NCBI GenBank assembly: GCA_027021705.1
Contig: JALUTT010000052.1
Span: 1-49,849, forward strand
Direction of reading: 5' to 3'
DNA length: 49,849 nt
Source: Anaerolineae bacterium
GTDB lineage: Bacteria > Chloroflexota > Anaerolineae > S140-20
A model generated the notes under the pieces. It was not told the DNA's origin and ran no database searches. It saw only the letters and a program-made list of their open reading frames with translations. A program made the position numbers and the translations under genes. How positions within the stretch are numbered: position 1 is the first letter of the stretch; the number at the start of each line of letters is the position of its first letter. This document shows positions 437-33,735 of the stretch, piece by piece.

Positions 437-448
437 GGAGGCCGTTTT

Positions 449-910
449 GTGAAGGAGAAGCGGATCCAGACGCCTTACGATGACCTGACTTACCGGATCA
501 TCGGCTGTGCTATGGCTGTGCACCGCCATCGTGGTCCGGGGTATCGGGAGGACACCTACCAGCGTGATCTGGAGGTGCATTTCGCCGAGAGCGCATTGAC
601 CTATGAACCACAGAAACTGCTCGAAGTGTACGACAGTGCCCAGGGCGGCGTATTGGTCGGCTATTACATCCCCGACTTCATCGTTGAAGACACCGTGGTC
701 GTAGAGATCAAAGCGCTACCTGACTTGAGCGACAGCCATGTGGCTCAGGTAATTGGCTACCTGGCTGTGACGAACTGTCCGGTGGGTCTGTTGATCAACT
801 TCGGTAGACGCAGCTTGCAGTGGCGACGCATCCTGCCGCCGAGGAACATCACGGAGCACCGCATCAACCGACAGTGGTTGTTTGTACCGGAGTGGTTGAA
901 GCCGGAGTAA
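449..910 (+). CDS. GxxExxY protein, PD-(D/E)XK nuclease-like (PDDEXK_3 type)
   Basis: GAGGAGG RBS before GTG. Motifs IIGCAMAVHRHRGPGYREDTY (GxxExxY), PDFIVEDTVVVEIKA (PD...ExK), QVIGYL and GLLINFG are typical of the family. Confidence 0.92.
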   Translation: MKEKRIQTPYDDLTYRIIGCAMAVHRHRGPGYREDTYQRDLEVHFAESALTYEPQKLLEVYDSAQGGVLVGYYIPDFIVEDTVVVEIKALPDLSDSHVAQVIGYLAVTNCPVGLLINFGRRSLQWRRILPPRNITEHRINRQWLFVPEWLKPE

Positions 911-920
911 CTTGACAATG

Positions 921-2325
921 GGAAACGGATCGCTGTCAACGGATTGGGGAAGCGGATTGCTGTCAACGGATTAAGGGAGCGGATTGAACGAATCACTTCC
1001 CATCCGCTCAATCCGTTCTCAAATCCGTTGACAGCTCCGCTCAATCCGTTCTTGAATCCGCTGGCAGCTCCGGGAAACGGATTGCTGTCAACGGATTAAG
1101 GGAGCGGATTGAACGGATTACTTCCCATCCGCTCAATCCGTTCAATCCGTTCTCAAATCCGTTGACAGCTCCGCTCAACTCGTGGAAACGGATGGCTGTC
1201 AACGGATTGGGGGAGCGGATTGAACGGATTACCTTCCATCCGCTCAATCCGTTCAATCCGTTCTCAAATCCGTTGACAGCTCCGTTCAACCCGTGGAAAC
1301 GGATCGCTGTCAACGGATTGGGGGAGCGGATTGAACGGATTACCTTCCATCCGCTCAATCCGTTCAATCCGTTCTCAAATCCGTTGACAGCTCCGCTCAA
1401 CCCGTGGAAACGGATGGCTGTCAACGGATTAGGGGAGCGGATTGAACGGATTACTTCCCAATCCGCTCAATCCGTTCTCAAATCCGTTGACAGCTCCGCT
1501 CAACCCGTGGAAACGGATGGCTGTCAACGGATTAGGGGAGCGGATTGAACGGATTACTTCCCAATCCGCTCAATCCGTTCTCAAATCCGTTGACAGCTCC
1601 GCTCGATCCTGGAAACGGATGGCTGTCAACGGATTGGGGGAGCGGATTGAACGGATTACCTTCCATCCGCTCAATCCGTTCAATCCGTTCTCAAATCTGT
1701 TGACAGCTCCGCTCGATCCGTTCTCGAATCCGCTGGCAGCTCCGGGAGACGGATCGCTGTCAACGGATTGGGGGAGCGGATTGAACGGATTACCTTCCAT
1801 CCGCTCAATCCGTTCAATCCGTTCTCAAATCCGTTGACAGCTCCGCTCAACCCGTGGAAACGGATGGTTGTCAACGGATTGGGGGAGCGGATTGAACGGA
1901 TTACTTCCCAATCCGCTCAATCCGTTCTTGAATCCGTTGACAGCTCCGGTCGATCTGTGGAAACGGATCGCTGTCAACGGACTGGGGGAGCGGATTGAAC
2001 GGATTACTTCCCAATCCGCTCAATCCGTTCTCAAATCCGTTGACAGCTCCGCTCAACCCGTGGAAACGGATTGCTGTCAACGGATTAAGGGAGCGGATTG
2101 AATGGATTACCTTCCATCCGCTCAATCCGCTCAATCCGTTCAATCCGTTCTCAAATCCGTTGACAGCTCCGCTCAATCCGTTCTCAAATCCGCTGGCGAC
2201 TCCGGGAAACGGATCGCTGTCAACGGATTAAGGGAGCGGATTGAACGGATTACTTCCCATCCGCTCAATCCGTTCTTGAATCCGTTGACAGCTCCGCTCA
2301 ATCCGTTCTCGAATCTGTTGACAGC
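921..2325. repeat. Tandem array of 12 palindromic units (mostly 102-111 bp, some 134-152 bp)
   Basis: Units start with GGAAACGGAT (one GGAGACGGAT variant) at about 921, 1073, 1184, 1295, 1406, 1509, 1611, 1745, 1856, 1959, 2062 and 2205. Each has the outer inverted repeat GCTGTCAACGGATT...AATCCGTTGACAGC and inner GAGCGGATTGAACGGATT / ATCCGCTCAATCCGTTC arms. No unique spacers. Confidence 0.95.
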
Positions 2326-2351
2326 TATCTGTTCCAGAACCTATTCCCGCA

Positions 2352-5282
2352 ATGGCCCAAGACAAGATCGTCGTCCGAGGTGCTCGCGAGCACAATCTGA
2401 AGAACATCACGGTGGAAATCCCCCGGAACCGGCTGGTCGTCATCACCGGCCTCTCCGGCTCCGGCAAGAGCTCCCTGGCCTTCGATACCATCTACGCCGA
2501 GGGGCGTCGCCGCTACGTGGAATCCCTCTCCGCCTACGCCCGGCAGTTTCTGGGCCAGATGGAAAAGCCGGACGTGGACCAGATTGACGGGCTCTCGCCG
2601 GCCATCTCCATTGACCAGCGGGGCGTCAGCCACAACCCCCGCTCCACCGTGGGCACCGTCACCGAGATCTACGACTACCTGCGCCTCCTCTACGCCCGCA
2701 TCGGCATCCCCCACTGTCCTCAGTGCGACCGCCCCGTCGTCCGGCAGAGCGCCCAGGAGATCGTGGACGCCGTGCTGCGGATGCCCGAGGGCACCCGCAT
2801 CCAGGTGCTGGCCCCCCTGGTGCGCGGGCGGAAGGGGCACCACCAGGCCGTCTTCGACGAGGTGCGCCGGGCCGGCTTCGTCCGCGTCCGGGTGGACGGC
2901 CAGGTCCGCGACGTGGACGAGGAGATCCGGCTGGACCGCTACAAGCTGCACACCATCGAGGTGGTCGTGGACCGGCTCATCGTCCGCCACCCCTCGGACG
3001 AAGAGGAGGCCCGGCAGTTCCGCTCCCGCCTCACCGACTCGGTGGAGACCGCCCTGCAGATGGGCGAGGGAACGCTGATCGTCAACGATGTCTCCGCCGA
3101 CCCGCCGGTGGACCACTTCTTCAGCGAGCACCTGGCCTGCCCTACCTGCGGCATCAGCCTGCCGGAGATCGAGCCCCGCACCTTCAGCTTCAACAGCCCC
3201 CACGGGGCCTGCCCCACCTGCCAGGGGCTGGGCGTCCAGATGAAGGTAGACCCCCGGCTGGTTGTGCCCAACGAGGAGCTGAGCCTGGCCGAGGGGGCGG
3301 TGCACGCCTGGAGCGGCCCCGAGGGCTCCCGCCGGGAGCGGAACGGCTACTACAGCCAGTTGCTCCGGGCCGTGGCCCGCCACTTCCACATCCCGATGGA
3401 CCGGCCCTGGCGGGAGCTGACGCCCACCCAGCGCCAGATCATCCTCTACGGCAGCGGTCAGGAGCGGATCCCCGTCACCTACGTCAACGCCGAGGGGCAC
3501 CGGCGCATCTACCAGACCCGCTTCGAGGGGGTGATCCCCAACCTGGAGCGGCGCTACCTGGAGACCACCTCCGACTACGTCCGCCACAAGATCGCCGGCT
3601 ACATGAGCTACAGCCCCTGCCCCGACTGCGGGGGGACCCGGCTGCGCCCAGAGGCGCGGGCGGTCAAGGTGGCCGGCAAGCCCATCCACGAGGTGACCGC
3701 CATGTCCGTCAGCCAGGCCCTGGCCTGGGTGAACGAACTGCGGGGCGAGGGAACGTCGGGGGCCGCTTCCCCCCTCACCCCCCGCCAACGGGCCATCGGC
3801 GAGCGCATCCTCAAGGAGATCGCCGACCGGTTGCAGTTTATGGTCAACGTGGGGCTGGACTACCTGACGCTGGACCGGGCCGCCTCCACCCTCTCCGGCG
3901 GTGAGGCCCAACGCATCCGGCTGGCCACCCAGATCGGCTCCCAACTGGTGGGCGTCCTCTACGTCCTGGATGAGCCCAGCATCGGCCTGCACCAGCGGGA
4001 CAACGCCCGTCTGATCCGCACCCTCCAGGGGATGCGGGACCTGGGCAACACCCTCATCGTGGTCGAGCACGACGAGGCGACGATCCGGGCCGCCGACTGG
4101 GTGATTGACCTGGGGCCGGGGGCCGGCGAACAAGGGGGCTACGTCGTCGCCACCGGCACCGTCGAGGAGATCATGGCGCACCCCGACTCGCTGACGGGGG
4201 CCTACCTGGCCGGCCGCCGGACCATCCCGCTGCCGGAGCGTCGCCGGTCCGGCAACGGTCGGTGGCTCGTCGTGCGCGGGGCCCGCGAGCACAACCTGAA
4301 GGGAATTGACGTCCGCATCCCCCTGGGCCGCTTCGTTTGCATCACCGGCGTCTCCGGCTCCGGCAAGAGCACGCTCCTCATCGAGATCGTCTACAAGCGG
4401 CTGGCCCAACTCCTCCACGGCTCCCGCCAGCGGGCCGGCGCCCACGACACCATCGAGGGCGTCCAGTGGATTGACAAGGTGATCCACATTGACCAGTCTC
4501 CCATCGGGCGGACGCCCCGCTCCAACCCGGCCACCTACACCGGCCTCTTCACCCCCATCCGGGAGCTCTTCGCCGGCCTGCCCGAATCGCGGATGCGGGG
4601 CTACCGTCCGGGTCGCTTCTCCTTCAACGTCAAAGGGGGGCGCTGCGAAGCCTGCCAGGGTCAGGGCGTCCTCCAGATCGAGATGCAGTTCCTGCCCGAC
4701 GTCTTCATCCCCTGCGACGTCTGCCACGGGACCCGCTACAACCGGGAGACGCTCCAGGTGCGCTACAAGGGGAAGAACATCGCCCAGGTGCTGGAGATGA
4801 CGGTGGACGAGGCGATGGCCTTCTTCGCCGACATCCCCACCATCCGGCGGAAGCTGAAGACGTTGCAAGATGTCGGGTTGGGCTACATCCGGCTGGGGCA
4901 GCCGGCGACCACCCTCTCCGGCGGTGAGGCCCAGCGGGTGAAGCTCTCCCGAGAGCTCTCCCGCAAGGCGACGGGCCGCACCCTCTACGTCCTCGACGAG
5001 CCCAGCGTCGGCCTCCACGCCCACGATGTCGCCCGGCTGATCCAGGTGCTCAACCGGCTGGTGGACGCCGGCAACACCGTCGTCATCATCGAGCACCACC
5101 CGGACATCATCAAGGTGGCCGACTGGATCATTGACCTGGGGCCGGAGGGGGGCGACGGGGGCGGCTGGATCGTCGCCGAGGGGACGCCGGAGGAGGTGGC
5201 CCAGGTGGACGCTTCCTACACGGGGCAGTTCCTGCGGGAGATCCTCCGGGAGCGCCGGGAGTCCATCCCCACGCCCTTGTAG
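2352..5282 (+). CDS. uvrA: Excinuclease ABC subunit A
   Basis: [13 protein letters not shown], two Walker A motifs ([18 protein letters not shown]), two [11 protein letters not shown] signatures, CxxC zinc fingers; 976 aa. Confidence 0.98.
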
Positions 5283-7436: not shown

Positions 7437-10400
7437 ATGCTTGACACAATAGTCAGCGCCGCGACCGAAGCCGTCTTCGGGTACCTGCTGGAAGAAGCGG
7501 GCCTGGCCGACCGCGTCCGCGCCCGGCTGAAGCGCGAACCGGCCCGCCTGGCCTTCCAGGCGGCGCTGGTCAATGCCTACACTGCTTTCGCCCGCCACTA
7601 TCCCCAATGGACGGAATCCCTTTTCGACCAGACCTTTCTCACCCGCGAGGATGTGGCGGCGGAACTGTCCAAATTCCTCACCCGCCACCGGCACCCCGAC
7701 CCGGCGGCCATCGCCCACGCCTGGGCGGCCTACTTCCCCGCTGCCGACCCCGACCGCCGTGAGGCCCGCGTGGACGAACTCACCCCCATCGTGGCCTGCT
7801 TCCTGGACTGGTTGGAGGCCGAACTCAAGGCCCAGGAGGCGTTGCAGCCCCTCTTCGACAGCCGGGCCCTGGAACGGCTGCCCGAGCTTGCGGAGGACGT
7901 CGCGGCCATACGGAAGACGTTGACCCAGGCCCTGGAGCGGGCCGCCAAGTACCAGGTGGTGGTCCGGCAGGCCCAGGGCCTGGTCATCGGCGACCACGCC
8001 CAGGTGACTCAGGTGTTCCACACCTACTTCGGCGCGGATTACGTCACCCTGAAGGAGCGCTACATCTCGCCCGAGCCCGTCTTCGACCGTGTCAAACTGG
8101 ACCGCTTCGCCGGCCGGCAATGGCTGGAAGCGGAACTGGACGCCTTTCTGAACGCCCCCAACCGGGATCGAGGGGTATGGCTGCTGGTGGGGGAGGCCGG
8201 GGTGGGCAAGACCACCTTCCTGGCCCACCTGGTGCAGACGCGGGGCTACCTGCACCTCTTTGCAGAGCAAGCCCCAGGCAAGGCCAACCTGCGCCAAGCG
8301 CTGGGCTCCCTGGCCGTCCAACTGGTGAGCCGCTACCGTTTGGAGCCTTACGCCCGGCGAGACACCCTGCCCCAGGACCTGATCGAGGCCCCTCACTTCT
8401 TTGAGCGGCTGCTGCGCGCCGCTGCCGAACAACTGATTCACGGCGAACGCTTGGTCATCGTGATTGACGCACTGGACGAGGCCGGCGCCCTGCCCGACCA
8501 GAATGTCCTCAACTTGCCCAAGGTTCTGCCCAGAGGCGTCTACCTGATCCTCTCCCAGCGTCCCGTTCCCGTGCCCCTGCGGGTGGACGCCCCCCTGGAG
8601 CGGGTGGAACTGCAGGCGGAAAGCGAGGAGAACCGCCGGGACGTGAAGAAATTCCTGGGCATGGTCAGCCTCCGCCCGGAGATTGCCGGACAACTGCGGG
8701 CGCAGGGGGAGGAGACGGACCGTTTTGTGCAGGTGCTGGCCGAGCGCAGCGCGGGAAACTGGATGTACCTGCACTACGTGCTGGACGAGATCGCGCGGGG
8801 GGAACGCCATCCCCTGGACCTGGATGCGCTGCCCGTGGGGCTCACCGGGTACTACGCCGAGTACTGGCAGCGCTGGCGGGACAGGGATAAGACCGCCTGG
8901 GACACCCGCTACGTTCCTTTACTGGCCACCCTGGGGGCTGCGCAGGAGCCGTTGTCCTTGGACCTGCTGCTCACGTGGAGCGGGGTGGAGCGCGCCCAGA
9001 GATACCGGATCCAGCTCCTGTTGCGGGAACAATGGCGGGCCTTTGTGTACGAATTGAACGTGGACGGGCAACCGGTGTACCGCCCCTACCATGCCAGCCT
9101 GCGGGATTTCCTGCACGGCCGGCTGGACGAGGAGCAGTGGCGACATCTTTCCCTTGCCCATGAACGCCTGGTGCAGGAGTTGATGGATCGGACCCGGGAC
9201 GCCCACCGCCGCATTGCCAAGTCCTACCTGGCCGACCCGGCCCGCTGGCCCGCCCACGGGGGCTACGCCTTTCGCCACCTGACCCACCACCTGGCCCAGG
9301 CGGGCATGGTTGGCGAACTGGCCGCGCTCATCGAAAACCGCGCCTGGTACGCCGCCAGCCGGGACCACGACCCCAGCCGCCGCCTCTTCGCCGAGGATGT
9401 GGCCCGGGCGCTGGGCCTGGCCGAGGCGGAGGTGCTGGAGGAGAAACGCCCGGACCGCCTGCCCCCCGTCGTGGCCTGGAGCCTGCTCCACGCCACCGTG
9501 CGCACCCTGGCCACCAACGTGCCCGTGGAAGCCCTGGAGGCCATGGCCCTGCTGGACGACGCCGACCGCGCCCGACGCTACGCCGCCTTGATCACCGACC
9601 CGGAGAAGCAGACCGAGGCCTACCGGCGGATTGGGGTGCGCCTGCACGAGCAGGGGAACACGGAGCAAGCGCGGGAGGCCCTGCAGCGGGCCCTGGCCGC
9701 CGCCGAGGGGATTGGAGTGGAGCCGTTTCGCGCCTGGGCCCTGGCCGCCGTGGCCCAGGCGATGGCCCAGGTGGGCGACCGGGCCGGCCTGCAGCGGGCC
9801 CTGGCCGCCGCCGAGGGGATTGGAGTGGAGCCGTTTCGCGCCGAGGCCCTGGCCGCCGTGGCCCAGGCGATGGCCCAGGTGGGCGATACGGACAAGGCCC
9901 GGGAAGCCCTGCAGCGGGCCCTGGCCGCCGCCGAGGGGATTGGAGGGGAGTGGTCTCGCGCCCGTGCCCTGGCCGCCGTGGCCGAGACGATGGCCCAGGT
10001 GGGCGACCGGGCCGGCCTGCAGCGGGCCCTGGCCGCCGCCGAGGGGATTGGAGGGGAACGGTATCGCGCCCGTGCCCTGGCCGCCGTGGCCCAGGCGATG
10101 GCCCAGGTGGGCGACCGGGCCGGCCTGCAGCGGGCCCTGGCCGCCGCCGAGGGGATTGGATGGGAGCCGCCTCGCGCCGAGGCCCTGGCCGCCGTGGCCC
10201 AGGCCATGGCCCAGGTGGGCGATACGGACGCTGCCTGGGAAGCCCTGCAGCGGGCCCTGGCCGCCGCCGAGGGGATTGGCGATGCCGATGACCGCGCCCG
10301 GGCCCTGGCCGCCGTGGCCCAGGCCATGGCCCAGGTGGGCGATACGGACGCTGCCTGGGAAGCCCTGCAGCGGGCCCTGGCCGCCGCCGAGGGGATTGGC

Positions 10401-12722
10401 GATGCCGAGGACCGCGCCTGGGCCCTGGCCGCCGTGGCCCAGGCGATGGCCCAGGTGGGCGATACAGACAAGGCCCGGGAAGCCCTGCAGCGGGCCCTGG
10501 CCGCCGCCGAGGGGATTGGAGGGGAGTGGTCTCGCGCCCGTGCCCTGGCCGCCGTGGCCGAGACGATGGCCCAGGTGGGCGACCGGGCCGGCCTGCAGCG
10601 GGCCCTGGCCGCCGCCGAGGGGATTGGAGGGGAACGGTATCGCGCCCGTGCCCTGGCCGCCGTGGCCCAGGCGATGGCCCAGGTGGGCGACCGGGCCGGC
10701 CTGCAGCGGGCCCTGGCCGCCGCCGAGGGGATTGGAGTGGAGCCGTTTCGCGCCGAGGCCCTGGCCGCCGTGGCCCAGGCGATGGCCCAGGTGGGCGATA
10801 CGGACAAGGCCCGGGAAGCCCTGCAGCGGGCCCTGGCCGCCGCCGAGGGGATTGGAGGGGAGTGGTCTCGCGCCCGTGCCCTGGCCGCCGTGGCCGAGAC
10901 GATGGCCCAGGTGGGCGACCGGGCCGGCCTGCAACAGGCCCTGGCCGCCGCCGAGGGGATTGACCGGGAGCGGTATCGCGCCTGGGCCCTGGCCGCCGTG
11001 GCCCAGACGATGGCCCAGGTGGGCGACCGGGCCGGCCTGCAACAGGCCCTGGCCGCCGCCGAGGGGATTGGCGATGCCGAGGACCGCGCCGAGGCCCTGG
11101 CCGCCGTGGCCCAGACGATGGCCCAGGTGGGCGACCGGGCCGGCCTGCAGCGGGCCCTGGCCGCCGCCGAGGGGATTGGCGATGATCCGTTCGGCTCTCA
11201 CGCCGAGGCCCTGGCCGCCGTGGCCCAGGCGATGGCCCAGGTGGGCGATACGGACAAGGCCCGGGAAGCCCTGCAGCGGGCCCTGGCCGCCGCCGAGGGG
11301 ATTGGAGGGGAACGGTATCGCGCCCGTGCCCTGGCCGCCGTGGCCCAGGCCATGGCCCAGGTGGGCGACCGGGCCGGCCTGCAGCGGGCCCTGGCCGCCG
11401 CCGAGGGGATTGGCGATGCCGAGGACCGCGCCGAGGCCCTGGCCGCCGTGGCCCAGGCGATGGCCCAGGTGGGCGACCGGGAAGGCCTGCAGCGGGCCCT
11501 GGACGCTGCCGAGGGGATTGGTGATGCCGAGGACCGCGCCCGTGCCCTGGCCGCCGTGGCCCAGGCGATGGCCCAGGTGGGCGACCAGGCCGGCCTGCAA
11601 CAGGCCCTGGCCGCCGCCGAGGGGATTGGAGGGGAGTGGTCTCGCGCCCGTGCCCTGGCCGCCGTGGCCGAGACGATGGCCCAGGTGGGCGACCGGGCCG
11701 GCCTGCAACAGGCCCTGGCCGCCGCCGAGGGGATTGGCGATGATCCGTTCGGCTCTCACGCCGAGGCCCTGGCCGCCGTGGCCCAGGCGATGGCCCAGGT
11801 GGGCGACCGGGCCGGCCTGCAGCGCGCCCTGGCCGCCGCCGAGGGGATTGGCGATGCCTATTGGCGCGCCTGGGCCCTGGCCGCCGTGGCCCAGGCGATG
11901 GCCCAGGTGGGCGACCAGGCCGGCCTGCAACAGGCCCTGGCCGCCGCCGAGGGGATTGGAGGGGAGTGGTCTCGCGCCCGTGCCCTGGCCGCCGTGGCCC
12001 AGACGATGGCCCAGGTGGGCGATCGGGCCGGCCTGCAGCGGGCCCTGGCCGCCGCCGAGGGGATTGGAGGGGAACGGTATCGCGCCCGTGCCCTGGCCGC
12101 CGTGGCCCAGGCGATGGCCCAGGTGGGCGACCGGGCCGGCCTGCAGCGGGCCCTGGCCGCCGCCGAGGGGATTGGCGATGCCGAGGACCGCGCCGAGGCC
12201 CTGGCCGCCGTGGCCCAGGCGATGGCCCAGGCGATGGCCCAGGTGGGCGACCGGGAAGGCCTGCAGCGGGCCCTGGCCGCCGCCGAGGGGATTGGAGGGG
12301 AGTGGTCTCGCGCCCGTGCCCTGGCCGCCGTGGCCCAGGCGATGGCCCAGGTGGGCGATACGGACAAGGCCCGGGAAGCCCTGCAGCGGGCCCTGGCCGC
12401 CGCCGAGGGGGTTGGAGAGGAATGGTCTCGCGCCGAGGCCCTGGCCGCCGCCGAGGGGATTGGATGGGAGCCGCCTCGCGCCGAGGCCCTGGCCGCCGTG
12501 GCCCGGGCCATGGCCCAGGTGGCGCAGCCCGGCGACGCCGAGACGGCGAAGGGGGCGGTAGACGCCTTCCGCCGGGCACGCGAACAGGGCCGCGAGGAGG
12601 TGTGGTTGTACATTGGGGCCTTCGCCCCCGTGCTGGCCAAACTGGGCGTGCTCGGCGAGGCGTGGCGGCGCATCCAGGCGGTGGAGGCGGTGGTCTGGGG
12701 AGGGCGTGAGGGGCAACCATAA
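7437..12722 (+). CDS. NLR-like STAND NTPase: N-terminal helical domain, NACHT/AAA_16-like NTPase, C-terminal TPR-like repeat array (1761 aa)
   Basis: AGGAG RBS. Walker A GEAGVGKT (8190-8213) and Walker B LVIVIDALDE (8451-8480), STAND-like GNWMYL and LPVGLTGYY segments, then 26 helical repeats. Confidence 0.88.
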   Translation: MLDTIVSAATEAVFGYLLEEAGLADRVRARLKREPARLAFQAALVNAYTAFARHYPQWTESLFDQTFLTREDVAAELSKFLTRHRHPDPAAIAHAWAAYFPAADPDRREARVDELTPIVACFLDWLEAELKAQEALQPLFDSRALERLPELAEDVAAIRKTLTQALERAAKYQVVVRQAQGLVIGDHAQVTQVFHTYFGADYVTLKERYISPEPVFDRVKLDRFAGRQWLEAELDAFLNAPNRDRGVWLLVGEAGVGKTTFLAHLVQTRGYLHLFAEQAPGKANLRQALGSLAVQLVSRYRLEPYARRDTLPQDLIEAPHFFERLLRAAAEQLIHGERLVIVIDALDEAGALPDQNVLNLPKVLPRGVYLILSQRPVPVPLRVDAPLERVELQAESEENRRDVKKFLGMVSLRPEIAGQLRAQGEETDRFVQVLAERSAGNWMYLHYVLDEIARGERHPLDLDALPVGLTGYYAEYWQRWRDRDKTAWDTRYVPLLATLGAAQEPLSLDLLLTWSGVERAQRYRIQLLLREQWRAFVYELNVDGQPVYRPYHASLRDFLHGRLDEEQWRHLSLAHERLVQELMDRTRDAHRRIAKSYLADPARWPAHGGYAFRHLTHHLAQAGMVGELAALIENRAWYAASRDHDPSRRLFAEDVARALGLAEAEVLEEKRPDRLPPVVAWSLLHATVRTLATNVPVEALEAMALLDDADRARRYAALITDPEKQTEAYRRIGVRLHEQGNTEQAREALQRALAAAEGIGVEPFRAWALAAVAQAMAQVGDRAGLQRALAAAEGIGVEPFRAEALAAVAQAMAQVGDTDKAREALQRALAAAEGIGGEWSRARALAAVAETMAQVGDRAGLQRALAAAEGIGGERYRARALAAVAQAMAQVGDRAGLQRALAAAEGIGWEPPRAEALAAVAQAMAQVGDTDAAWEALQRALAAAEGIGDADDRARALAAVAQAMAQVGDTDAAWEALQRALAAAEGIGDAEDRAWALAAVAQAMAQVGDTDKAREALQRALAAAEGIGGEWSRARALAAVAETMAQVGDRAGLQRALAAAEGIGGERYRARALAAVAQAMAQVGDRAGLQRALAAAEGIGVEPFRAEALAAVAQAMAQVGDTDKAREALQRALAAAEGIGGEWSRARALAAVAETMAQVGDRAGLQQALAAAEGIDRERYRAWALAAVAQTMAQVGDRAGLQQALAAAEGIGDAEDRAEALAAVAQTMAQVGDRAGLQRALAAAEGIGDDPFGSHAEALAAVAQAMAQVGDTDKAREALQRALAAAEGIGGERYRARALAAVAQAMAQVGDRAGLQRALAAAEGIGDAEDRAEALAAVAQAMAQVGDREGLQRALDAAEGIGDAEDRARALAAVAQAMAQVGDQAGLQQALAAAEGIGGEWSRARALAAVAETMAQVGDRAGLQQALAAAEGIGDDPFGSHAEALAAVAQAMAQVGDRAGLQRALAAAEGIGDAYWRAWALAAVAQAMAQVGDQAGLQQALAAAEGIGGEWSRARALAAVAQTMAQVGDRAGLQRALAAAEGIGGERYRARALAAVAQAMAQVGDRAGLQRALAAAEGIGDAEDRAEALAAVAQAMAQAMAQVGDREGLQRALAAAEGIGGEWSRARALAAVAQAMAQVGDTDKAREALQRALAAAEGVGEEWSRAEALAAAEGIGWEPPRAEALAAVARAMAQVAQPGDAETAKGAVDAFRRAREQGREEVWLYIGAFAPVLAKLGVLGEAWRRIQAVEAVVWGGREGQP
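9676..12520 (+). repeat. Intragenic array of 26 coding repeats (108 or 120 bp; 36 or 40 aa) with a hypervariable cassette
   Basis: Scaffold LQRALAAAEGI-[variable]-A[W/E/R]-ALAAVAQAMAQVGD-[RAG or TDKAREA] is nearly identical at DNA level between copies. Confidence 0.95.
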
Positions 12723-15060: not shown

Positions 15061-15336
15061 ATGAGTACCGCACAGAAATCCAAAAGACGCAAGCGCAAAG
15101 TCAGCAAAGCCCAAACGTACAACGCCTGTCGCCAAGCTGACCGGGCTCGTCGGGCGCGGCGCCGCGCCCGCACCGAGCGGCGGGAGCGGGAGCGCCGTCA
15201 GTTCAAGTTTCGCGTCAAGGTCGTGCGCTACTACAAGAAACCGCCGGTTGGCGCCCCCGGTTGGGCGCTACGCCGGACGGCACATAACCATCCGGGGGCT
15301 GGCCGGCATCCCCGGGATCGAGCCGATGGCAGGTGA
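15061..15336 (+). CDS. Arg/Lys-rich hypothetical ORF, possibly a gene fragment
   Basis: ATG 4 nt after the MITE end; MSTAQKSKRRKRKVSKAQTYNACRQADRARRARRR...; no recognised domain and no clear RBS. Confidence 0.3.
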   Translation: MSTAQKSKRRKRKVSKAQTYNACRQADRARRARRRARTERRERERRQFKFRVKVVRYYKKPPVGAPGWALRRTAHNHPGAGRHPRDRADGR

Positions 15337-15464
15337 CCCCCGTTGGGGAAACTCCTATCGCGACCCGCCCATAGAGATCATACCTTCCACAGCCTTCAGG
15401 TCCACCGCTTTGGCGATCTGGACCCCACCCACTGCCAACGTGGCAGCATGAGGAGAGTGTCAAG

Positions 15465-16028
15465 ATGCGTGTATACTCAACACATATGACCGAAACGGTT
15501 TCTTCGCGGCGACAAAAGCCGGTTAGGTGGCGCTCTTTGGTCTTGGTAGGGGGGCTTATCAGTTTAGGGGTGTGCGTGATTCTGGCGTTTTTGCTAACGC
15601 GGCCTGCCCGCGCTATCCCCATTCCCATGCAAGTCGCGGGGTATCCGCTGCGCGCGCATCTGTTTGGTCCCGACGCAGCCAGGGAGATCCGGGATATGCA
15701 CCGGGGCACCTTTCCCCTCACGGGTGCGGCTATTGGCATATATGGGAACAGGGATGCAACGGTCTGGGTGAGTGAGATATGGGGGGAGTGGGGGGCAGCG
15801 CTGCTCATGCACAGCATGACAAAGGCCATCGCGCGTGTGGATTCCCCTTTTGAGCCTGTAGGAGAACGACTGGTGGATGGGATACAGGTGTATGAGTTGA
15901 CGGGGATGGGACAAGCTCACTTTTACTTTCGGGTACGGAATCAGGTCTACTGGCTGGCCATCCGGCCCACGCGCGCGGAAGCCGGCCTGCGGGATATCCT
16001 CGCCTTTGCAAAGGGCATAGGTCGTTAG
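15465..16028 (+). CDS. Membrane-anchored hypothetical protein (187 aa)
   Basis: GAGGAGAG RBS; one N-terminal TM helix (LVLVGGLISLGVCVILAFLL); visibly more A/T-ending codons than the core genes. Confidence 0.7.
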   Translation: MRVYSTHMTETVSSRRQKPVRWRSLVLVGGLISLGVCVILAFLLTRPARAIPIPMQVAGYPLRAHLFGPDAAREIRDMHRGTFPLTGAAIGIYGNRDATVWVSEIWGEWGAALLMHSMTKAIARVDSPFEPVGERLVDGIQVYELTGMGQAHFYFRVRNQVYWLAIRPTRAEAGLRDILAFAKGIGR

Positions 16029-16159
16029 CGCCCGTGTCGGATCTCCTATGGAGGCGCTGTGCTTCCCCCGTACACTCCACCCTTGCCAGGTTGTGACTCG
16101 GCCTTTGTTTCTCCTCTTTTCTCTTTTCCAGCACTGAGGGCCGGGGACTGAGGATTGAG

Positions 16160-19100
16160 TCAAGGCGTCGGTGTCGCCTTCGGCGGGCGCGTTGGCGCAG
16201 GCGGGAGCGTCGGGGTCGGCGGCGCCGGCGTGGGCGTTGGGAGCGGCGTCGGCACCGGCGTCGCCGTCGGCGCCGGTGTCGGCGTCGGCGCGACCACCGT
16301 CACCACCACCCGCCCCTCGATCCGATTCCCCGCCTTGTCCACCGCCGTCACCCTCAGCGTGTAGGTCCCCGGCTCCAGGGAACGGGTGTCCCACTCTGTC
16401 AACACCCCGTCTACCACCGGCGTCAGGTGCGGCCCGCTGATCCAGCCCCAGCCCTGGGGGTCCATCCCCACGCCGTACTGGACCTCGTAACGGTCGAAGT
16501 TGGGCATCGTCACCCGCCCCATCACCCGGACCAGGCCCTGGACGACGGTGGAGCCGTTGGCCGGCTGGGTGATGACCACCTGGGGGCGCTCGGTGCCGGC
16601 GGTGCACTCGGCCTCCGGCGGCTCCTCCAGGGGGACGGCGAAGCCCCGGGCCTCGGCCCAGGCCCGCCCCGCCTCCGTCTCGTTCACCCACTTCCGCCCC
16701 TCCTCAGGCAGCACCAGGAAGACCTTCTCCACCACGTTCTCCTGGCAGAACTCGTTGGCCCGCAGGCCGGTGAAGGCGTCAATCCGCACCATCTGGTAGA
16801 AGTCGTAGCTCTCGTCCAGGGGAGGCTGGCCCTGGGCGAAGACCTCCCGCCGCCGGCGAGGGCAGTAGGGGGTGGGCATCGCGCCGGAGTCGGCGCAGAT
16901 CTCGTACTCGACGATCCCCTCGGGCCGCACGAAGTCGCGCACCGGCTGCCCTTCCAGCGCCGCTTCCATAAAGTCGTGCCAGATGGGCGTCGCCACCTGG
17001 TAGCCGCTCATCCCAGAGCCGATGGGGCGGTTGTCCGTGTTCCCCGCCCAGACGCCGACGACCAGGTCCGGCGTGTAACCGATGGTCCAGGTGTCGTAGA
17101 CGTGGTCCCGGTCGGTGCCCGAGGTGCCCGTCTTGACCGCCGCCGGGCGGGAGAGTTCCAGCAGGTTGGGACAGCCGAAGGCCGGGCAGCGGGCTTGGTT
17201 GTCGGCCAGGATGTCGGTGATCAGGTAGGCGTAGCGGGGGTCGAGGACCCGCCCTCCCCGCTGGCGGCCCACGATCTCCTGGTAGAGGGTGCCATCGGCG
17301 TACTCGATCCGCCGGATGGCCGTCGGCGGCACCCGGATGCCCTGGTTGGCGAAGACGGCGTAGGCCCCCGCCATCTCCAACAGCTTCACCTCGCCGCCGC
17401 CCAGGGTCAGCGAGAGGCCGTAGTCGTTGCGGGTCAGCGTGGTGATGCCCAGCCGGGCCGCCATCTCCTTCAGCCCCTCGACGGTGACGAACTGGAGCGC
17501 CTTGACCGCCGGGATGTTGTAGGAGTTGCCCAGGGCATCCCGTACCAGCACCGGCCCGTGGAAGCGATCGTCGTAGTTCTTGGGCACATAGGGCGGGTTG
17601 GGGCCGTTGGGGAACTCCGTCCGCACGTCCCAGATGAGGGTGGCCGGCGTCCAGCCCAGCTCAAAGGCCTTGACGTAGGTGAGGGGCTTGATGGAGGACC
17701 CGGGCTGGCGAGGCTGCAAGGCGACGTTGACCTGCCCATCAATGGTCTCATCGTAGAAGTCGAGGCTGCCCACCATGGCCAGGATCTCGCCGGTGTCAGG
17801 GCGGAGGACGACGATGGCTGCGTTGTCCACGCCGGCCTGGGCCAGCCGTTCCCGGTGGGCGGCCAGCGTCTCCTCGGCCAGGGCCTGGAGCCGGGGGTCC
17901 AGCGTCGTGTAGACGCGCAGCCCCACATCCCGGTAGAGGGCTTCCCGTCCCAGCTCGGCCTCCAGCTGCTGGCGGACGTAGGCGACGAAGTGGGGGGCGG
18001 GGAGATCGCGGCGGGGCGGCTTCAGGTCGCCGATGCGGGCTTCCATTTCGGCCTGGGCCGCCGCCGCCTGGTCCGGCGTGATGTAGCCCGCCTCCACCAT
18101 CAGGGCGAGCACCTGCTGCTGCCGCCGGAGCGCCCCCTCAGGATTGGTGAAGGGGTCCCAGGTCGCCGGGGCTTGGGGCAGGCCGGCCAGCAGCGATGCC
18201 TCGGCCAGGTTCAGGTCCCGCGCCCGTTTCTGGAAGTAGGTCTCGGCCGCCGCCTCGATGCCATAGGCCAGGTTGCCGTAGTTGATCTCGTTCAGGTAGA
18301 TCTCCAGGATCTCGTCCTTGCTGTAGCGGCGGGTCAGTTCGGTGGCCAGGACAGCTTCCTTGATCTTGCGGCTCAACGTCCGCTGGGTCCGCTCCTGGGG
18401 GGAGAGGAGCAGGTTGCGGGCCACCTGCTGGGTGATGGTGCTGGCCCCGGAGACGGCGTCCCGGGCCTTCACGTTCTGGTAGACGGCCCGCAGGATGGCC
18501 AGGGGGTTAAAGCCCGGATGGCGGTAGAAATCCCGGTCCTCGGTGGCGATGGTGGCCTGGATCAGGTAGGGGGAGATCTCCGAGAGGGGGACACGGGTGC
18601 GCCGCCCCCCCTGGGGGTCCACCAACTCCCAGAGCAGGTTGCCCTCCCGATCGAAGAGCTTGGTGCTGACGAAGGTGGTCTCCCGCAGCCGCAGCTCCTC
18701 GGGGGCCGGGAGCCGGCCGGCCAGGTAGATGTAGCCGGCCGTGGCGACGGCGACGGCGGCGAAGAAGAGGATGACCAGGAGCGCGACACTGAACAGGAAG
18801 AGCCGCACCAGACAGCCGGCGCCGGTGCGGGCGACCGCCGGACGCCGGCTCCGGGGGGGGATGGGGGGCGGGGTGGGGCGGGGGGCAACCGGGACGGGAG
18901 GACGGTAGCCCGTCCGCTGAGGAGGCGGGATCGGTGTGCCCCGTCGGGGGGAAGGAAGGGGTGGGGAGGCCGGCGGTTGGGCAGGCCGGGGGGTCGTCTC
19001 CGTCGTCATCGCCACCTCGGGGGGCTCCGCCGCAGAGGGCGTCTCCCCCGAGCCCAGCATCGGGGGGCGGGAGGGACGGCGCACGGCCGGCGAGGGCTGG

Positions 19101-19375: not shown

Positions 19376-20281
19376 TCACGCCCTCCGCCCCCCTCCCCGC
19401 CAATGCTTCCCCGTCTCCGGGTCCACGAAGAGGTTCCCCAACCGCAGGGCATCCACCCCGTCCAGGCCCGGCAGCGGGGTGCGGACGGTCAGGGTCCGGG
19501 TAGCCCGGTCGTGGTCCATAAGGACGCCCAAGGCCAGGGCGAAGCCCCGCGCATCCTCGAAGGCGAGGAGCCGGCGAGGTAGAAAGCCCATCCCCCCGAA
19601 GAGGGCCAGCCGGTCCCAGCGCACCGCCAGGTCGCGGGCCTGGGCGAAGTAGTCCCGGAAGCGGGTGATCCGATGGGCTTGGCGGACGGGGAGGGGCCGC
19701 CGCCGGACCGCCGGAGCGACGGGCATCTCGATGACGCGGACCCGCCGGCTCCTCCGCAGCGGGAAGAGGATGGGCTCCAACTCCCTCTGCCGGGCCAGGG
19801 CGAAGACGACGGTGGGCTCCAGAAGGGCGATGAGGGCCTCCTTCAGGGCTACTCCGCCCCGGTCGGGGGCGACCAGCCCGGTCGTGTCCACAACCACGGC
19901 CTTCGCGCCTTGGGCGATGGCCTCCCGCTGGAGGCGCGAGGCCCCCACCACCAGGGGGAGCATGTGGCCCCGAGGAGAGATGTTGCCCACGAAGACCCGC
20001 CGGCGGAGGCCGGCCGGCGGAAAGGTTGTCTCCCCTTCGCCCACCACCAGCGTCATCGTCGTCGGCGGTCCCAGCGTCGCCTGGCCCACGTCGCCGTCCA
20101 GGAAGGCAACCCGTCCGTGCACCTCCGCCAGCCGCCGGAAGAGGTAGCGGGCGAAGGTGGACTTGCCGCTGTCGGGAGCGCCGATAACCAGCAGCGTTCC
20201 CTGCAGCGGGGCCACATCCAGCCGCCGCCACCGCTCTGGCACCTGCAAGGCCATGGGGGAAGCCGTTGCGCTCGCCTCCAT
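19376..20281 (-). CDS. Clp1/Nol9(Grc3)-family polynucleotide 5'-OH kinase
   Basis: P-loop GAPDSGKST, LDGDVGQATLGPP, VVDTTG, and lid-like RRRPLPVRQAHR..RFRDYF. Confidence 0.85.
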   Translation of the reverse strand: MEASATASPMALQVPERWRRLDVAPLQGTLLVIGAPDSGKSTFARYLFRRLAEVHGRVAFLDGDVGQATLGPPTTMTLVVGEGETTFPPAGLRRRVFVGNISPRGHMLPLVVGASRLQREAIAQGAKAVVVDTTGLVAPDRGGVALKEALIALLEPTVVFALARQRELEPILFPLRRSRRVRVIEMPVAPAVRRRPLPVRQAHRITRFRDYFAQARDLAVRWDRLALFGGMGFLPRRLLAFEDARGFALALGVLMDHDRATRTLTVRTPLPGLDGVDALRLGNLFVDPETGKHWRGGGRRA

Positions 20282-20289
20282 CGCAGTTC

Positions 20290-20350
20290 CACGCCTTACG
20301 TTTCACGCCTTACGTTTCACGCCTTACGTTTCACGCCTGACGCTTTACGC
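20290..20350. repeat. Short tandem repeat (CACGCCTTACGTTT x3 plus a degenerate copy)
   Basis: Fills the HAD-Clp1 intergenic gap; the 14-mer is made of two 7-mers. Confidence 0.9.
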
Positions 20351-20354
20351 CCAC

Positions 20355-21095
20355 CTACCACCCGGTGATCACCCCGGGCAGTTCCCCCAGCCGCTCGACA
20401 ACCGCCTCCGGGATGATCCGGCCCTCGTGCTCGGCGTTGTCGCTGATGGGGCTGAAGCGGTGGACCCAGATGGCCCGCATCCCGGCCCGGTGGGCGCCCA
20501 GCACGTCGGCCGAGAGGGTGTCGCCGACGACGACGACCTCCGACGGGGGGAGCGCCCAGGTCTCCAGGATGAGCCGAAAGGGGCGCGGGTGGGGCTTGCG
20601 CAGCCCCAGGCCGGCCGAGGTGTGGATGGGGTCGAACCAAGGGCGCAGGCCGCTCCGGTCCACGATCCGCCGGACGTGGCTGTCGTCGTTGGTGTTGGAG
20701 AGGATGGCCAGGCGGTAACCGGCCTCCCGCAGCCGTTCCACCGTCTCAAAGGTGTCCTCGTAGGGCTCCCAGTAGTCGGCCAGGAGGGCGTAGAGGGCCT
20801 GGTGGGCGCTGTCCAGCAGGCTGTCGGGCAGGCCATCGGGCAGCGCCTCGCGCAGGGCCCGGAGCAGGGCCAGCCGGGCCGGGTACTCGTACAGGAGCGG
20901 GGTGCCCACCTCGCGCAGGATTTGCTGGTGGGCCTGGAAGCGCCGGTAGAGGTCCGGGGCCTCGATGGGCAAGCCATAGCGGGCCAGGCACGCCCCCAGC
21001 GCCGCGATCCGCCGGGGCTCCACCTCCCGCTCGTAGTCGGCCACGAAGTCCACCAGCGTCCAACCCAGGTCGAAGATAATGCCTTGTACGGTCAT
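20355..21095 (-). CDS. HAD-superfamily hydrolase (subfamily IA)
   Basis: IIFDLGWTL (motif I), ILSNT, RKPHPRPF, VGDTLSADVLGAHRAGM. Confidence 0.92.
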   Translation of the reverse strand: MTVQGIIFDLGWTLVDFVADYEREVEPRRIAALGACLARYGLPIEAPDLYRRFQAHQQILREVGTPLLYEYPARLALLRALREALPDGLPDSLLDSAHQALYALLADYWEPYEDTFETVERLREAGYRLAILSNTNDDSHVRRIVDRSGLRPWFDPIHTSAGLGLRKPHPRPFRLILETWALPPSEVVVVGDTLSADVLGAHRAGMRAIWVHRFSPISDNAEHEGRIIPEAVVERLGELPGVITGW

Positions 21096-31163: not shown

Positions 31164-31687
31164 GGGGCTACTGCCTTTCGGATGCGCTCCATCTGCTGAC
31201 CGAAGAGGGTCTCGGCCAGCAGCCCCATCAGCGGCGGGACGGGGAGGGTGACAAGGAGGCGGATCAAGGTCAGGTGAGCTCCCAGCAGAGCGAACTCCAA
31301 GGGCAGCCGCGTCACCGACCAGAGGTTCTTGGCGGTGACGAAGGCCACCAGCACGCCCAGCCCCGCCCCCGACCGCATCAGAGCCGCCGCGATGGGGTAG
31401 TAGGCGTAAGGGCCGCCGGGGATCAGGGCTCCTCCCAGGCAGGCCAGGGCAATCCCTTGCCAGCCCGACTCGGCCCCCAGCCAACGGGCGGCCCGGTCGC
31501 GGGTCACCAGCGTCTGGACGAGCCCGGCGATGAGGAAGGCGAAGACCAACAGCGGGATGACGCTCACCAGCGTCCGACCGCCGTCCACGAAGCCGGCCAG
31601 GACCAGGGCAGGCCCTCCCTGCCACCAGGCGATGCCGGCCAGAAGGGCCGCCACGAAGATTAGGGCGATGGTCGTGCGGTCAGGCAT
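31160..31687 (-). CDS. Predicted permease half (DUF318/ArsP-like)
   Basis: GGAGAG RBS; WLGAESGWQG, IPGGPYAYYPI, LPLEFALLG. Confidence 0.75.
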   Translation of the reverse strand: MPDRTTIALIFVAALLAGIAWWQGGPALVLAGFVDGGRTLVSVIPLLVFAFLIAGLVQTLVTRDRAARWLGAESGWQGIALACLGGALIPGGPYAYYPIAAALMRSGAGLGVLVAFVTAKNLWSVTRLPLEFALLGAHLTLIRLLVTLPVPPLMGLLAETLFGQQMERIRKAVAP

Positions 31688-31700
31688 AGCTCTCTCCGGG

Positions 31701-31755
31701 TTTGGTCGGGTGGTCGCTTGGTCGCTTGGTCGGGTGGCCGGGTGGCCCTCGGTCT
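31701..31755. repeat. Short octamer tract (GGTCGGGT / GGTCGCTT)
   Basis: Same octamers as the 46716..47100 tract. Confidence 0.7.
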
Positions 31756-32529
31756 TCACCCCTCGGTTCCTTGCTCCGGGGAGCCCAGCAGGTCGTAGAG
31801 GGTGCGCCGCAGATAGTTGAGGTGCAGCAGCCGCAGCAGGGGACCGACCAGTTGCCGGAAGCGCTGGTAGCGGGCCATCCTCTCCGCTTCTTCGCCGCCG
31901 TCCTGGCAGAGGCCGGCGAAGAGGGCGCGTTCGTGTCGGGCTACCTCTTGGGCCCAGCGGGCGTAGAAGCGCAGGTCCTCCGGCGTGAAGCCCATCGCCA
32001 GCAGGCCGGCCAGCACCCGGAGCAGGTGGACCGCCTCTTCGTCGAAGCGGCCCGTCTTGGGGCAAGGGAGCACCAGGCCCAGCGCCTCCAGCTCGCGGAC
32101 CTGGGCCTCTGTCAGGCCGGCCTGGGCGGCGGCCTCCGATCGGGAGAGGGGATGGAAAGCAGGGTCGAAGGCTTCCTCGTGAAGAGTGCGCTCCATCACG
32201 AGGAAGCGGTAGGTGGGGTCCTCTTCCATCCGTTGGAGCAGCGCCTTGATGGTCTCCAAGGGGAGCCGGCGGTGGGTGCGCAGCTCCAGGATGAGACGCA
32301 GCCGTTCAACGTCGGCGGGGCAGTAGAGACGGTGACCGCCAGGGGTGCGGCGAGGGGTGATCAACCCCTCCCGCTCCCAGAAATGCAGCTTGCTGGCGGT
32401 GACCTCGGGGCAGCTCTCCCGCAGCCGCTCGACCACCTGACCGATGGTGAGCAGCGATTCCGAGGCTAGGCGGTCACTGCCCGCTCCTGCTCCCGTTCCT
32501 CCTGCTCGGCCTTCTGCTCGGCCAGCCAC
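31756..32529 (-). CDS. MerR-family transcriptional regulator (start uncertain)
   Basis: [11 protein letters not shown]...[24 protein letters not shown], plus a second HTH-like segment ([13 protein letters not shown]). Confidence 0.85.
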
Positions 32530-33473
32530 TTCTCGGCCTCCATCGCTGCCGCCGCTCCCATCCCGGCCGAGGTGACGACTTGGCGAAAGATGGGATCGGC
32601 CACCTCGCCGGCGGCGAAGACCCCCGGCACGTTGGTGTGCATCCGTCGGTCCACCACCAGGTAGCCCCGCTCGTCAATCTCCAACTGCCCCTGAAAGATG
32701 CCCGTGTTGGGGATGTGACCGATGAAGATGAAGACCCCATCAATGGGCATCACCCGCTCCTCGCCCGTCTTCACGTTCTTCAGGCGCACCGCCTCGACCT
32801 TCTCCTCACCGAGGATCTCCGTCACCACGGTATCCCAGATGAAGTCAATCTTCGGGTTGGCGAAGGCCCGTTTCTGGAGGATCTTGCTCGCCCGGAGCTG
32901 GTCCCGCCGGTGAACGACGGTGACCTGGCGGGCGAACTTGGTCAGGAAGAGGCTCTCCTCCATCGCGCTGTCCCCCCCGCCGACGACAACGACCTCTTTG
33001 TCCTGGAAGAACCAGCCGTCACAGGTGGCACAGTAGCTGACGCCCCGGCCGGTCAGCTCCGCCTCGCCGGGCACCTGGAGCTTCCGGGGCGAGGCCCCGG
33101 TGGCGATGATGACGGCGCGGGCCAGGTAGTTGCCGTTGTAGCCGGTCAGCACGAAGGGGTGTTGCTGGAAATCCACCGCCGTGATGGTGTCCAGCTCCAC
33201 ACGAGCACCGAAGCGCTCCGCCTGTTCCTGCATCCGCTGGACCAGTTCCGGCCCCTGGACGCCCTCCGGGAAGCCGGGGTAGTTCTCCACCTCACTGGTG
33301 AGGGCGACCTGACCGCCGATCTCGCTTCCGGTCAGAACCAGCACATCCAGGTGGGCTCGGGCGGCGTAGAGGGCCGCCGTCAGGCCGGCCGGCCCGGAGC
33401 CGATCACGATCACGTCGAACAGCTTATCGGTCGTCGGTTCACCAGCAGCAGGCATTCCCAAACTGAACTCCAT
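32466..33473 (-). CDS. trxB: Thioredoxin-disulfide reductase
   Basis: [41 protein letters not shown] before ATG at 33473. Confidence 0.96.
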
Positions 33474-33500
33474 CGCGCTCACCTCCTCATCTTTCGTCTT

Positions 33501-33675: not shown

Positions 33676-33676
33676 T

Positions 33677-33710
33677 AAAGAAGAGCCCCACGCGCTCCAC
33701 CGTGGGGCCC
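33677..33710 (-). terminator. Probable intrinsic terminator after groES
   Basis: GCCCCACG / CGTGGGGC stem followed by TCTTCTTT on the minus strand. Confidence 0.55.
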
Positions 33711-33735
33711 TCCGCTGGCCGGAGAGAAGGGCGGA

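Follow-up and report, generated by a model that had tools for sequence, protein, structure and literature searches.

The stretch of DNA analysed here (the window) is the whole 49,849-nucleotide contig C52 (GenBank JALUTT010000052.1) of the Anaerolineae bacterium assembly GCA_027021705.1, a genome of 5.19 Mb in 183 contigs with 66% G+C, hereafter G000. Near its beginning, ahead of uvrA, which starts at 2352, a small gene of the GxxExxY family is followed by a tandem array of palindromic units, the two being placed between protein-coding genes and not in rRNA. The gene and the hairpin family are, with high confidence, parts of one element. The features of the locus are as follows.

437..2339, plus strand: the whole block of leader, GxxExxY gene and hairpin array, absent as a single piece in a variant allele
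449..910, plus strand: GxxExxY/PDDEXK_3 nuclease gene of the hairpin-associated clade, with C-terminal tail NRQWLFVPEWLKPE (family profiles, orthologue alignment, tree, model)
921..2326, plus strand: tandem array of gene-less hairpin units with conserved linkers (repeat finding, arm search)
932..945, plus strand: orphan left arm GCTGTCAACGGATT ahead of unit 1
959..1035, plus strand: hairpin unit 1, 77 nt
1084..1169, plus strand: hairpin unit 2, 86 nt
1195..1280, plus strand: hairpin unit 3, 86 nt
1306..1391, plus strand: hairpin unit 4, 86 nt (folded)
1417..1494, plus strand: hairpin unit 5, 78 nt (folded)
1520..1597, plus strand: hairpin unit 6, 78 nt
1622..1707, plus strand: hairpin unit 7, 86 nt, one mismatch in the right arm
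1756..1841, plus strand: hairpin unit 8, 86 nt
1867..1944, plus strand: hairpin unit 9, 78 nt, one mismatch in the left arm
1970..2047, plus strand: hairpin unit 10, 78 nt, one mismatch in the left arm
2073..2167, plus strand: hairpin unit 11, 95 nt, one extra 9-nt step
2216..2292, plus strand: hairpin unit 12, 77 nt
2312..2325, plus strand: terminal orphan right arm, one mismatch, the right edge of the block lying just behind it

The open reading frame (ORF) at 449..910 begins with GTG and encodes 153 amino acids. PDDEXK_3 (PF13366) is its sole Pfam match, at 1.5e-30 and 106.4 bits against a cut-off of 22, and the GxxExxY profile TIGR04256 is matched at 2e-32 and 112 bits against a curated cut-off of 35. 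The catalytic residues D62, D76 (in PDF) and E86-x-K88 (in VEIK) are invariant in 18 orthologues, as are G31, E34 and Y37 of the GxxExxY motif and W143, L144 and P147 of a conserved C-terminal tail (QWLFVPDWL) that is specific to the hairpin-associated clade. The G+C content at third codon positions is 0.73, compared to 0.94 in uvrA.

An AlphaFold2 model of the protein (predicted local distance difference test score 90.2) displays an alpha/beta nuclease core. The nearest solved folds are PD-(D/E)XK nucleases, namely Cas4 SSO0001 (Z 8.1, root-mean-square deviation 4.2, 113 aligned residues), R.SwaI (Z 7.8), Cas4 Pcal_0546 (Z 7.1) and Hjc (Z 6.9), with tRNA-splicing endonucleases also among the matches at Z 5-6; all these values fall in a range that the tool flags as possibly just a common arrangement. 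Foldseek gave Cas4 SSO0001 (4ic1) with an E value of 1.2e-4, and a search of PDB sequences gave 0 matches. The model shares its fold and the catalytic D...D...ExK residues with the Cas4/RecB-like and Hjc nucleases, but the protein has no sequence relative in the PDB and no CRISPR context, and its QWLFVPDWL tail is peculiar to the hairpin clade. Nuclease activity of the GxxExxY protein is putative. In the table of a 2012 survey the function of PDDEXK_3 is given as 'Unknown' (PMC3424549).

Tandem Repeats Finder places the array at 921-2326, starting 10 nt past the stop codon of the gene, and reports periods near 111 and 103 as well as one of higher order, 450 (92% matches). The 14-mer arm GCTGTCAACGGATT is found 26 times in the window with up to one mismatch, always within 932-2325, against 0.03 in shuffled sequences. 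Cutting at these arms yields 12 complete units, each 77-95 nt long and pointing the same way; their 14-bp outer arms are exact apart from the mismatches listed above. An arm comprises the 14-bp terminus, beginning GCTG, and 9-nt steps of the AACGGATT type. Eight of the linkers between units are 24-25 nt long and three are 48 nt, each of the latter with an extra half arm, and two orphan arms, left and right, stand at 932-945 and 2312-2325. The original prediction, made from these letters alone, had described an array that starts 10 nt past the stop codon with 12 units and 14-bp arms, and all of this agrees with what we observe; the unit listing plainly shows the recurring alleles on which it remarked (TTGGGG/TTAAGG/TTAGGG and TACCTTCC/TACTTCCC) as well as units that have gained or lost 9-nt steps. 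It was also correct that there are no unique spacers, since the linkers are conserved strings common to the units, unlike the guide arrays of CRISPR or TIGR type. Public contigs cover the array interior in short pieces only, with alternative joints, so that a single assembly underlies the number and order of the units. The junction of gene and array is spanned by an 868-nt contig of run X1, which covers 125-990.

Either strand of a unit, whether RNA or DNA, folds into a long hairpin (z from -7.5 to -9.9), the RNA fold reaching about -60 kcal/mol (z about -10). Rfam gave nothing above the gathering score over the array, only sub-threshold matches to microRNA-like hairpins. No promoter-like or terminator-like site occurs in 921-2326 and no T-run stands behind the stems; the combination of GC-rich stem and T-run that marks an intrinsic terminator was not found there.

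Gene and array behave as a single unit of insertion or deletion. A 371-nt contig of run X2 (depth 9.9, 44 nt on its shorter side) connects 436 with 2340 through 10 intervening letters, so that a 1903-bp block is missing, and the same run also has contigs of the nuclease gene with 5-11 differences. In two genomes of the same family neither gene nor array is present upstream of uvrA; the neighbourhood differs and synteny is not conserved. Relatives that lack gene and array together, one of the checks proposed with the original prediction, are thus represented by these two genomes, with their different synteny, and by the X2 contig.

The evidence that joins gene and hairpin comes from other genomes. 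The window protein was used as query against 400 further genomes of the class, and the orthologue set that emerged is sharply separated, with matches that span all 153 residues including the C-terminal tail. We term the 14-mer GCTGTCAACGGATT type arm A and a second type, found at diverged orthologues, arm B. All 11 non-self orthologues of 63-80% identity have arms (up to two mismatches) adjacent to the gene, which in 10 cases stand on both sides; with the window gene they make up 12 clade-A genes in nine distinct contexts as judged by flank similarity. A complete hairpin stands on each side of the gene at most arm-A loci. The upstream hairpin is placed some 40-155 nt before the gene, its left arm at -120 to -155 in the clade-A orthologues, and the downstream left arm is at 0 to +17 from the end of the match, in several genomes overlapping the last codons or the stop. 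Three genomes from other families have a GxxExxY gene with arms on both sides, and in G025 three of the four exact 14-mers genome-wide are at the GxxExxY gene. Not one of 18 lower-identity loci from the same search, which include one row from an unpublished genome on which nothing here is based, has an arm with up to one mismatch. Gene and repeat family therefore co-occur at fixed geometry in many genomes.

The central idea of the original prediction was that a GxxExxY nuclease is paired with the hairpin unit in the manner of REP-associated tyrosine transposases (RAYTs) and repetitive extragenic palindromes (REPs), and the adjacent arms of 11/11 orthologues support it. The enrichment of hairpins at GxxExxY genes that this idea entailed is seen for the cognate clade (11/11, nine contexts) but not within G000, where there are seven GxxExxY matches at six loci and one locus of the six is within 100 bp of the window hairpin family (P=0.15). 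The other five loci are different paralogues, which accounts for the lack of enrichment there.

Some individual loci depart from the common gene form. In G010 (contig C4, locus L113, 1495-2283, minus strand) the open frame between the arms encodes 263-280 amino acids, with about 115 extra N-terminal residues that have no Pfam match and precede the PDDEXK_3 domain; four left half-units stand upstream of this gene and right half-units downstream. At L122 (G157), L125 (G125) and L126 (G086) the nuclease ORF has no stop ahead of the downstream repeats, which are read through as low-complexity sequence of SASGS/SVPPS type, in two cases continuing into a further domain. At L097/L107 (contig C48 of G009) an intergenic direct duplication of about 66 nt, some 85% alike, occurs at L097 1237-1302 and 2150-2220; it flanks the whole hairpin-gene-hairpin cassette, between two ABC-transporter genes.

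More diverged orthologues carry different arms. Six of eight lower-tier loci (50-64% identity) are bracketed by related but different arms, and those at 50-59% identity are built of GCACGACACGGATT, GCACCACACGGATT, GCACGACACTGATT or GCACGACACGGAG steps. The arms in G304 and G194 are GCACGACACGGATT; those in G136 are TGCACCACACGGATT, a simple inverted pair around the gene; G200 has GCACGACACTGATT hairpins and both G125 and G086 have GCACGACACGGAG-type steps. None of the types GCACGACACGGATT, TGCACCACACGGATT, GCACGACACTGATT and GCACGACACGGAG was found at the G122 or G157 loci. Copies of the second arm type number two in G136, both at the gene, three in G194 (two at the gene), seven in G304 (five at the gene), 11 in G125 (three at the gene) and 48 in G200, where they are dispersed over more than 25 contigs. 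In G342 the outermost arms to the left and right of the gene have changed in step, reading GGTGTGAACGGATT and AATCCGTTCACACC.

A maximum-likelihood tree was calculated for 40 GxxExxY proteins, with broken or partial genes and the unpublished locus omitted. The hairpin-associated proteins form one clade (support 98/99) comprising two sister clades, an arm-A subclade (99/95, arm A in 10 of 11 rows) and an arm-B subclade (90/98, seven of eight rows). The tree is incongruent with host families, and family f43 is present in both arm clades. The arm sequence tracks the protein phylogeny. On contigs C109 and C172 of G259, two copies of a gene resembling the arm-B clade start at the same offset (56) from the contig ends, and this identity of offset suggests a multi-copy element in that genome.

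A similar arrangement extends to paralogues outside the clade. Four of the five other GxxExxY loci in G000 sit in stepped repeats of their own; on contigs C162, C116 and C145 arms flank the gene on both sides, on C36 downstream only. These repeats are built from ACACGGAT, CACAAAG/CACGAAG and GACGCAGA/GACGCAAA steps, and C36 has yet another set. Multi-copy 16-mers occupy at least 100 positions in the flanks of five of six GxxExxY loci compared with 15.7% of 3580 genes. The paralogue repeat families are local or nearly so, occurring in 1-3 places against 78 for the window family. An exact inverted 12-mer brackets 26 of 45 GxxExxY loci, versus 123 of 3318 genes of G000, and in a phylum-wide sample 17 of 27 GxxExxY loci versus two of 56 shifted control intervals.

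The window hairpins belong to a large dispersed family. The 14-mer occurs 268 times exactly in G000 and 495 times with up to two mismatches, against four for the reversed control. The 495 arms fall in 116 clusters, 67 of them with at least two arms, and 456 of the arms are outside called ORFs, although the latter make up 86% of genome length. BLAST locates the family at 78 places on 59 contigs and a profile of the window unit recovers 110 near-complete units. Flanking genes at cluster sites are oriented ++ in 15 cases, -- in 14, divergent (-+) in eight and convergent (+-) in seven; where the neighbours are co-directional the units run the same way in six clusters and the opposite way in 10. 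Many clusters are at contig ends. The largest array of the family, on contig C147 (22438-24606), has 40 arms, with a loop insertion of about 100 nt in two units, and most of its right arms are the G variant (AATCCGCTGACAGC).

Beyond G000, a scan of one genome per species with the complete hairpin as query gave at least 80 loci, most of those listed being labelled Anaerolineae, Caldilineaceae or Chloroflexota. The 142 ORFs beside hairpins at the 80 loci listed are diverse housekeeping genes, and include one PDDEXK_3 gene, no Y1_Tnp gene and one DDE transposase. An exact hairpin is also present in one record labelled Poribacteria (L005) and at 11 loci in one metagenome-assembled genome labelled Abditibacteriales (L007, L029, L037, L043, L046, L049, L063, L065, L071, L078 and L080), which reflects either cross-phylum transfer or mis-binned contigs. 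The exact 14-mer occurs in 52 of 401 genomes of the class and in none of three from the same family. Among 72,556 plasmid records seven gave weak matches to the family, all below 60% identity, and the phage records gave no match.

The hairpins are dispersed and intergenic and they lack target-site duplications: among 77 hairpins taken from other genomes, 1% have a direct repeat of at least 4 nt at their ends, compared with 3% when the flanks are re-paired. A minority lie inside a locus-specific palindrome, with at least six complementary flank bases in six of the 77, compared to 1.7% of re-paired flanks. Purines abound in the left flanks and pyrimidines in the right flanks. Double substitutions preserve the stem pairing, with GC replaced by AU in 14 of 79 hairpins and the reverse in five. 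Mismatches in the G000 units are asymmetric (A.C 67, G.T 20), a count dominated by one inherited arm variant, and across genomes the inner stem trends in the opposite direction to this outer-stem result.

What kind of element is this? We favour, with a probability of roughly 0.6, a two-part selfish DNA system that consists of a single-copy gene for a GxxExxY PD-(D/E)XK nuclease and its cognate fold-back repeat. In its usual form arms or whole hairpins bracket the gene and gene-less hairpins are scattered through intergenic DNA. The window array is the right-hand hairpin amplified to 12 units by local tandem duplication, the left flank being missing. The nuclease would bind the stepped arms, probably as several protomers, and cut the ends of the element once these are extruded as a hairpin or cruciform. 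The fold-back might then be copied or re-inserted by host replication and repair, and gene-less units would for that reason be mobilised or maintained in trans, as REPINs (sequences formed by paired REPs) are by RAYTs. Mobilisation by the nuclease is suggested by analogy with such systems.

Several observations weigh against this interpretation. Several genomes with 10-24 exact arms yielded no clade gene; among those with 14-24 arms the profile finds only ordinary paralogues in G015, G067 and G106, and none in G147, with the caveat that these genomes are 86-99% complete by marker genes, so that absence of the gene is not proven. In G089, which also has exact arms, the clade gene is an internally deleted remnant. 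Two of the 12 clade-A genes (G175 and G212) contain an in-frame TAG, yet G212 has 18 exact arms. An orthologue of the arm-A clade in G122 (L118) has no 14-mer arms, on an upstream flank of just 120 nt, though the gene is bracketed by an exact inverted 12-mer. The window copy itself has no left arm and may be immobile. Units are 89.6% alike within a cluster and 68.8% between clusters, and for 69 of 95 units the nearest neighbour is in the same cluster; arrays therefore grow mainly by local duplication, for which a dedicated enzyme is not needed. Related genomes are not independent, the 12 clade-A genes reducing to nine contexts, and the empty-site allele is known from one contig of one run. Finally, we know of no case in which a lone PD-(D/E)XK nuclease suffices for transposition.

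Of the other explanations the one that fares best is a homing-type selfish gene, in which the nuclease cuts intact hairpins and recombination copies the gene in, the hairpins themselves being spread by other means or owned by the host. PD-(D/E)XK homing endonucleases exist. In G136, G194, G125 and G010 the gene stands exactly at the position of the hairpin loop, with left arms upstream and right arms downstream, and the hairpins in genomes where no clade gene was found would fit as well. Against this, there is one clade gene per genome despite tens to hundreds of targets (one gene for the 495 arms of G000), most arm-A genes are between two complete hairpins and not inside one, and the arms of G136 are just the two that bracket the gene and therefore that genome offers no other target. 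Homing is, on balance, unlikely.

Another possibility is a domesticated pair, in which the hairpins serve the host, for example in nucleoid organisation or supercoiling as proposed for the bacterial interspersed mosaic elements (BIMEs), and the nuclease maintains or resolves them, perhaps by clearing away extruded cruciforms, and does not spread them. The single-copy gene is in keeping with such a role, as are hairpins that are strictly intergenic and in many genomes beside housekeeping genes, and the rarity of the family on plasmids and its absence from phage records. A dispensable selfish element is the better fit, because the spread is patchy (52 of 401 class genomes and none of three from the same family), the protein tree disagrees with the host families (f43 occurs in both arm clades), genes are broken and presence or absence is polymorphic. 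We judge domestication to be improbable.

A role at the transcript level, with RNA hairpins acting as stabilisers, terminators or processing sites and the nuclease processing RNA, appears more improbable still. It gains something from the very stable RNA folds, from an array placed between co-directional genes with no promoter-like or terminator-like site within it and from orthologues whose stop codon abuts or overlaps an arm. However, unit orientation is independent of the co-directional genes, clusters are also found between divergent and convergent genes, both strands fold about equally and no T-run follows the stems. The G.T and A.C asymmetry is inconsistent between outer and inner stems, and the closest folds are DNA nucleases, notwithstanding the tRNA-splicing endonucleases. 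The suggestion in the original prediction that a co-transcribed RNA might be cut into hairpins is accordingly without support, given that unit orientation ignores the direction of flanking genes. That the array merely landed beside the gene, or was misbuilt from dispersed repeats, is scarcely credible and as regards the pairing is already contradicted, since for all that the enrichment in G000 alone is not significant, many contigs end in repeats and the public contigs internal to the array have alternative joints, 11/11 orthologues elsewhere have arms placed in the same way, arm and protein co-vary and the gene is linked to the start of the array by the 868-nt contig of run X1.

The element resembles known systems in part. 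Background on REP and REPIN elements and RAYT (TnpA_REP) genes was taken from accounts of particular aspects (PMC2817692, PMC3116915, PMC3337134, PMC8266576, 10.1101/2022.05.22.493013). In common with these, palindromic repeats flank a single-copy gene and also occur, without it, scattered through intergenic DNA; the repeat sequence is particular to the enzyme clade, and the repeats cluster in arrays. The enzymes are different, a PD-(D/E)XK nuclease here and an HUH/Y1 transposase (PF01797) in RAYTs, and so are the repeats, 77-95-nt fold-backs of 9-nt steps compared with REPs of 20-40 bp. REPs are characterised, in one description of their ends, as short palindromes with a GTAG or CGTC tag at one end (PMC3733652); the window units have neither tag and their arms begin GCTG. 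A RAYT as partner of the hairpins was considered and rejected: PF01797 was searched in G000 and five hairpin-bearing genomes with no consistent flanking. Arms were found at none of eight Y1_Tnp loci in G010, G015 and G025 and at one of the two Y1_Tnp genes of G000, on the 3' side only.

On contig C14 of G000 (15300-18015) an IS200-like Y1 transposase gene (about 16091-16508) is preceded by a different tandem repeat, with a period near 300 bp, and followed by hairpin-family arms. Direct repeats some 130 bp long (16596-16722 and 17539-17672) enclose a stretch of roughly 0.8 kb next to the Y1 gene.

Miniature inverted-repeat transposable elements (MITEs) derived from insertion sequences (ISs), for example Correia/NEMIS, provide a second comparison. 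Shared aspects are terminal inverted repeats around one gene (G136, G194, G125, G010 and G342), gene-less hairpins that resemble two ends joined, and presence/absence polymorphism. The difference is that here no transposase of a known family is encoded, there is no target-site duplication and the gene is single-copy, not multi-copy. A third comparison is with the BIME arrays of Escherichia coli (PMC2817692). Tandem mosaics of palindromic units, conserved linkers and an intergenic location are common to BIMEs and the present array, but the REPs of a BIME alternate in orientation whereas all 12 units here point the same way and each is a long hairpin. The defining features of REP/RAYT systems and of known IS families were tested and are not those found here, and the element is therefore a member of neither. 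By analogy, a relation like that of REPINs to RAYTs or MITEs to ISs appears to be the best fit.

Other repeats occur in the window. Positions 1-124 are the end of an element that recurs with 100% identity at 20 or more other places, nearly all of them contig ends, and that in run X1 has a depth of about 2000-3500 against 76 for the nuclease gene; since nearly all copies are at contig ends this is probably an insertion sequence that broke the assembly. A tandem repeat of 108-bp period (24.7 copies, 84% matches) at 9680-12450 lies inside an ORF of 1761 amino acids (7437-12722) and seems to encode a repeat protein. At 46718-47104 and 33510-33676 there are arrays of 8-mers (GTGGTCGC type) and 7-mers (CCTTGCC) whose higher-order periods are 99-115. 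Inverted arms were looked for in the other short-period repeats (46600-47200, 33400-33800, 31600-31850 and 20200-20450) and none were found, so the 8-mer and 7-mer arrays differ in architecture from the hairpin array.

The GxxExxY-hairpin selfish element is apparently undescribed. A literature search, with subscription journals and supplements outside its scope, found no description of the pairing. Papers listed for GxxExxY gave nothing on repeats, none of those listed combined PDDEXK with REP/RAYT, and by title nothing relevant was listed on REP in Chloroflexi or on foldback or hairpin nuclease elements.

We tentatively extend the argument to the family as a whole. GxxExxY/PDDEXK_3 proteins, a large orphan family in bacteria and archaea, could be the enzymes of a widespread, undescribed class of fold-back element, in which a small structure-specific nuclease, with neither transposase nor recombinase, recognises stepped inverted arms and together with host repair propagates the gene-bearing element and hundreds of gene-less hairpins. 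We regard this generalisation as a conjecture that may well prove too broad. If true, it would mean that DNA can move by a route other than DDE, HUH, serine or tyrosine chemistry, identify the source of many unexplained intergenic hairpin repeats and give an orphan nuclease family a testable function. Long-lived replicators within genomes, for which REPINs and RAYTs are the paradigm, would also gain a second and unrelated class of enzyme. The hairpin repeats have a practical consequence in that they break short-read assemblies, as seen from the many G000 contigs that end in them, and co-evolving pairs of sequence-specific nuclease and hairpin are a possible source of new DNA tools. For the Chloroflexota, the two-part system would, if correct, explain the origin of a hairpin repeat that is conserved base for base across many records carrying that label.

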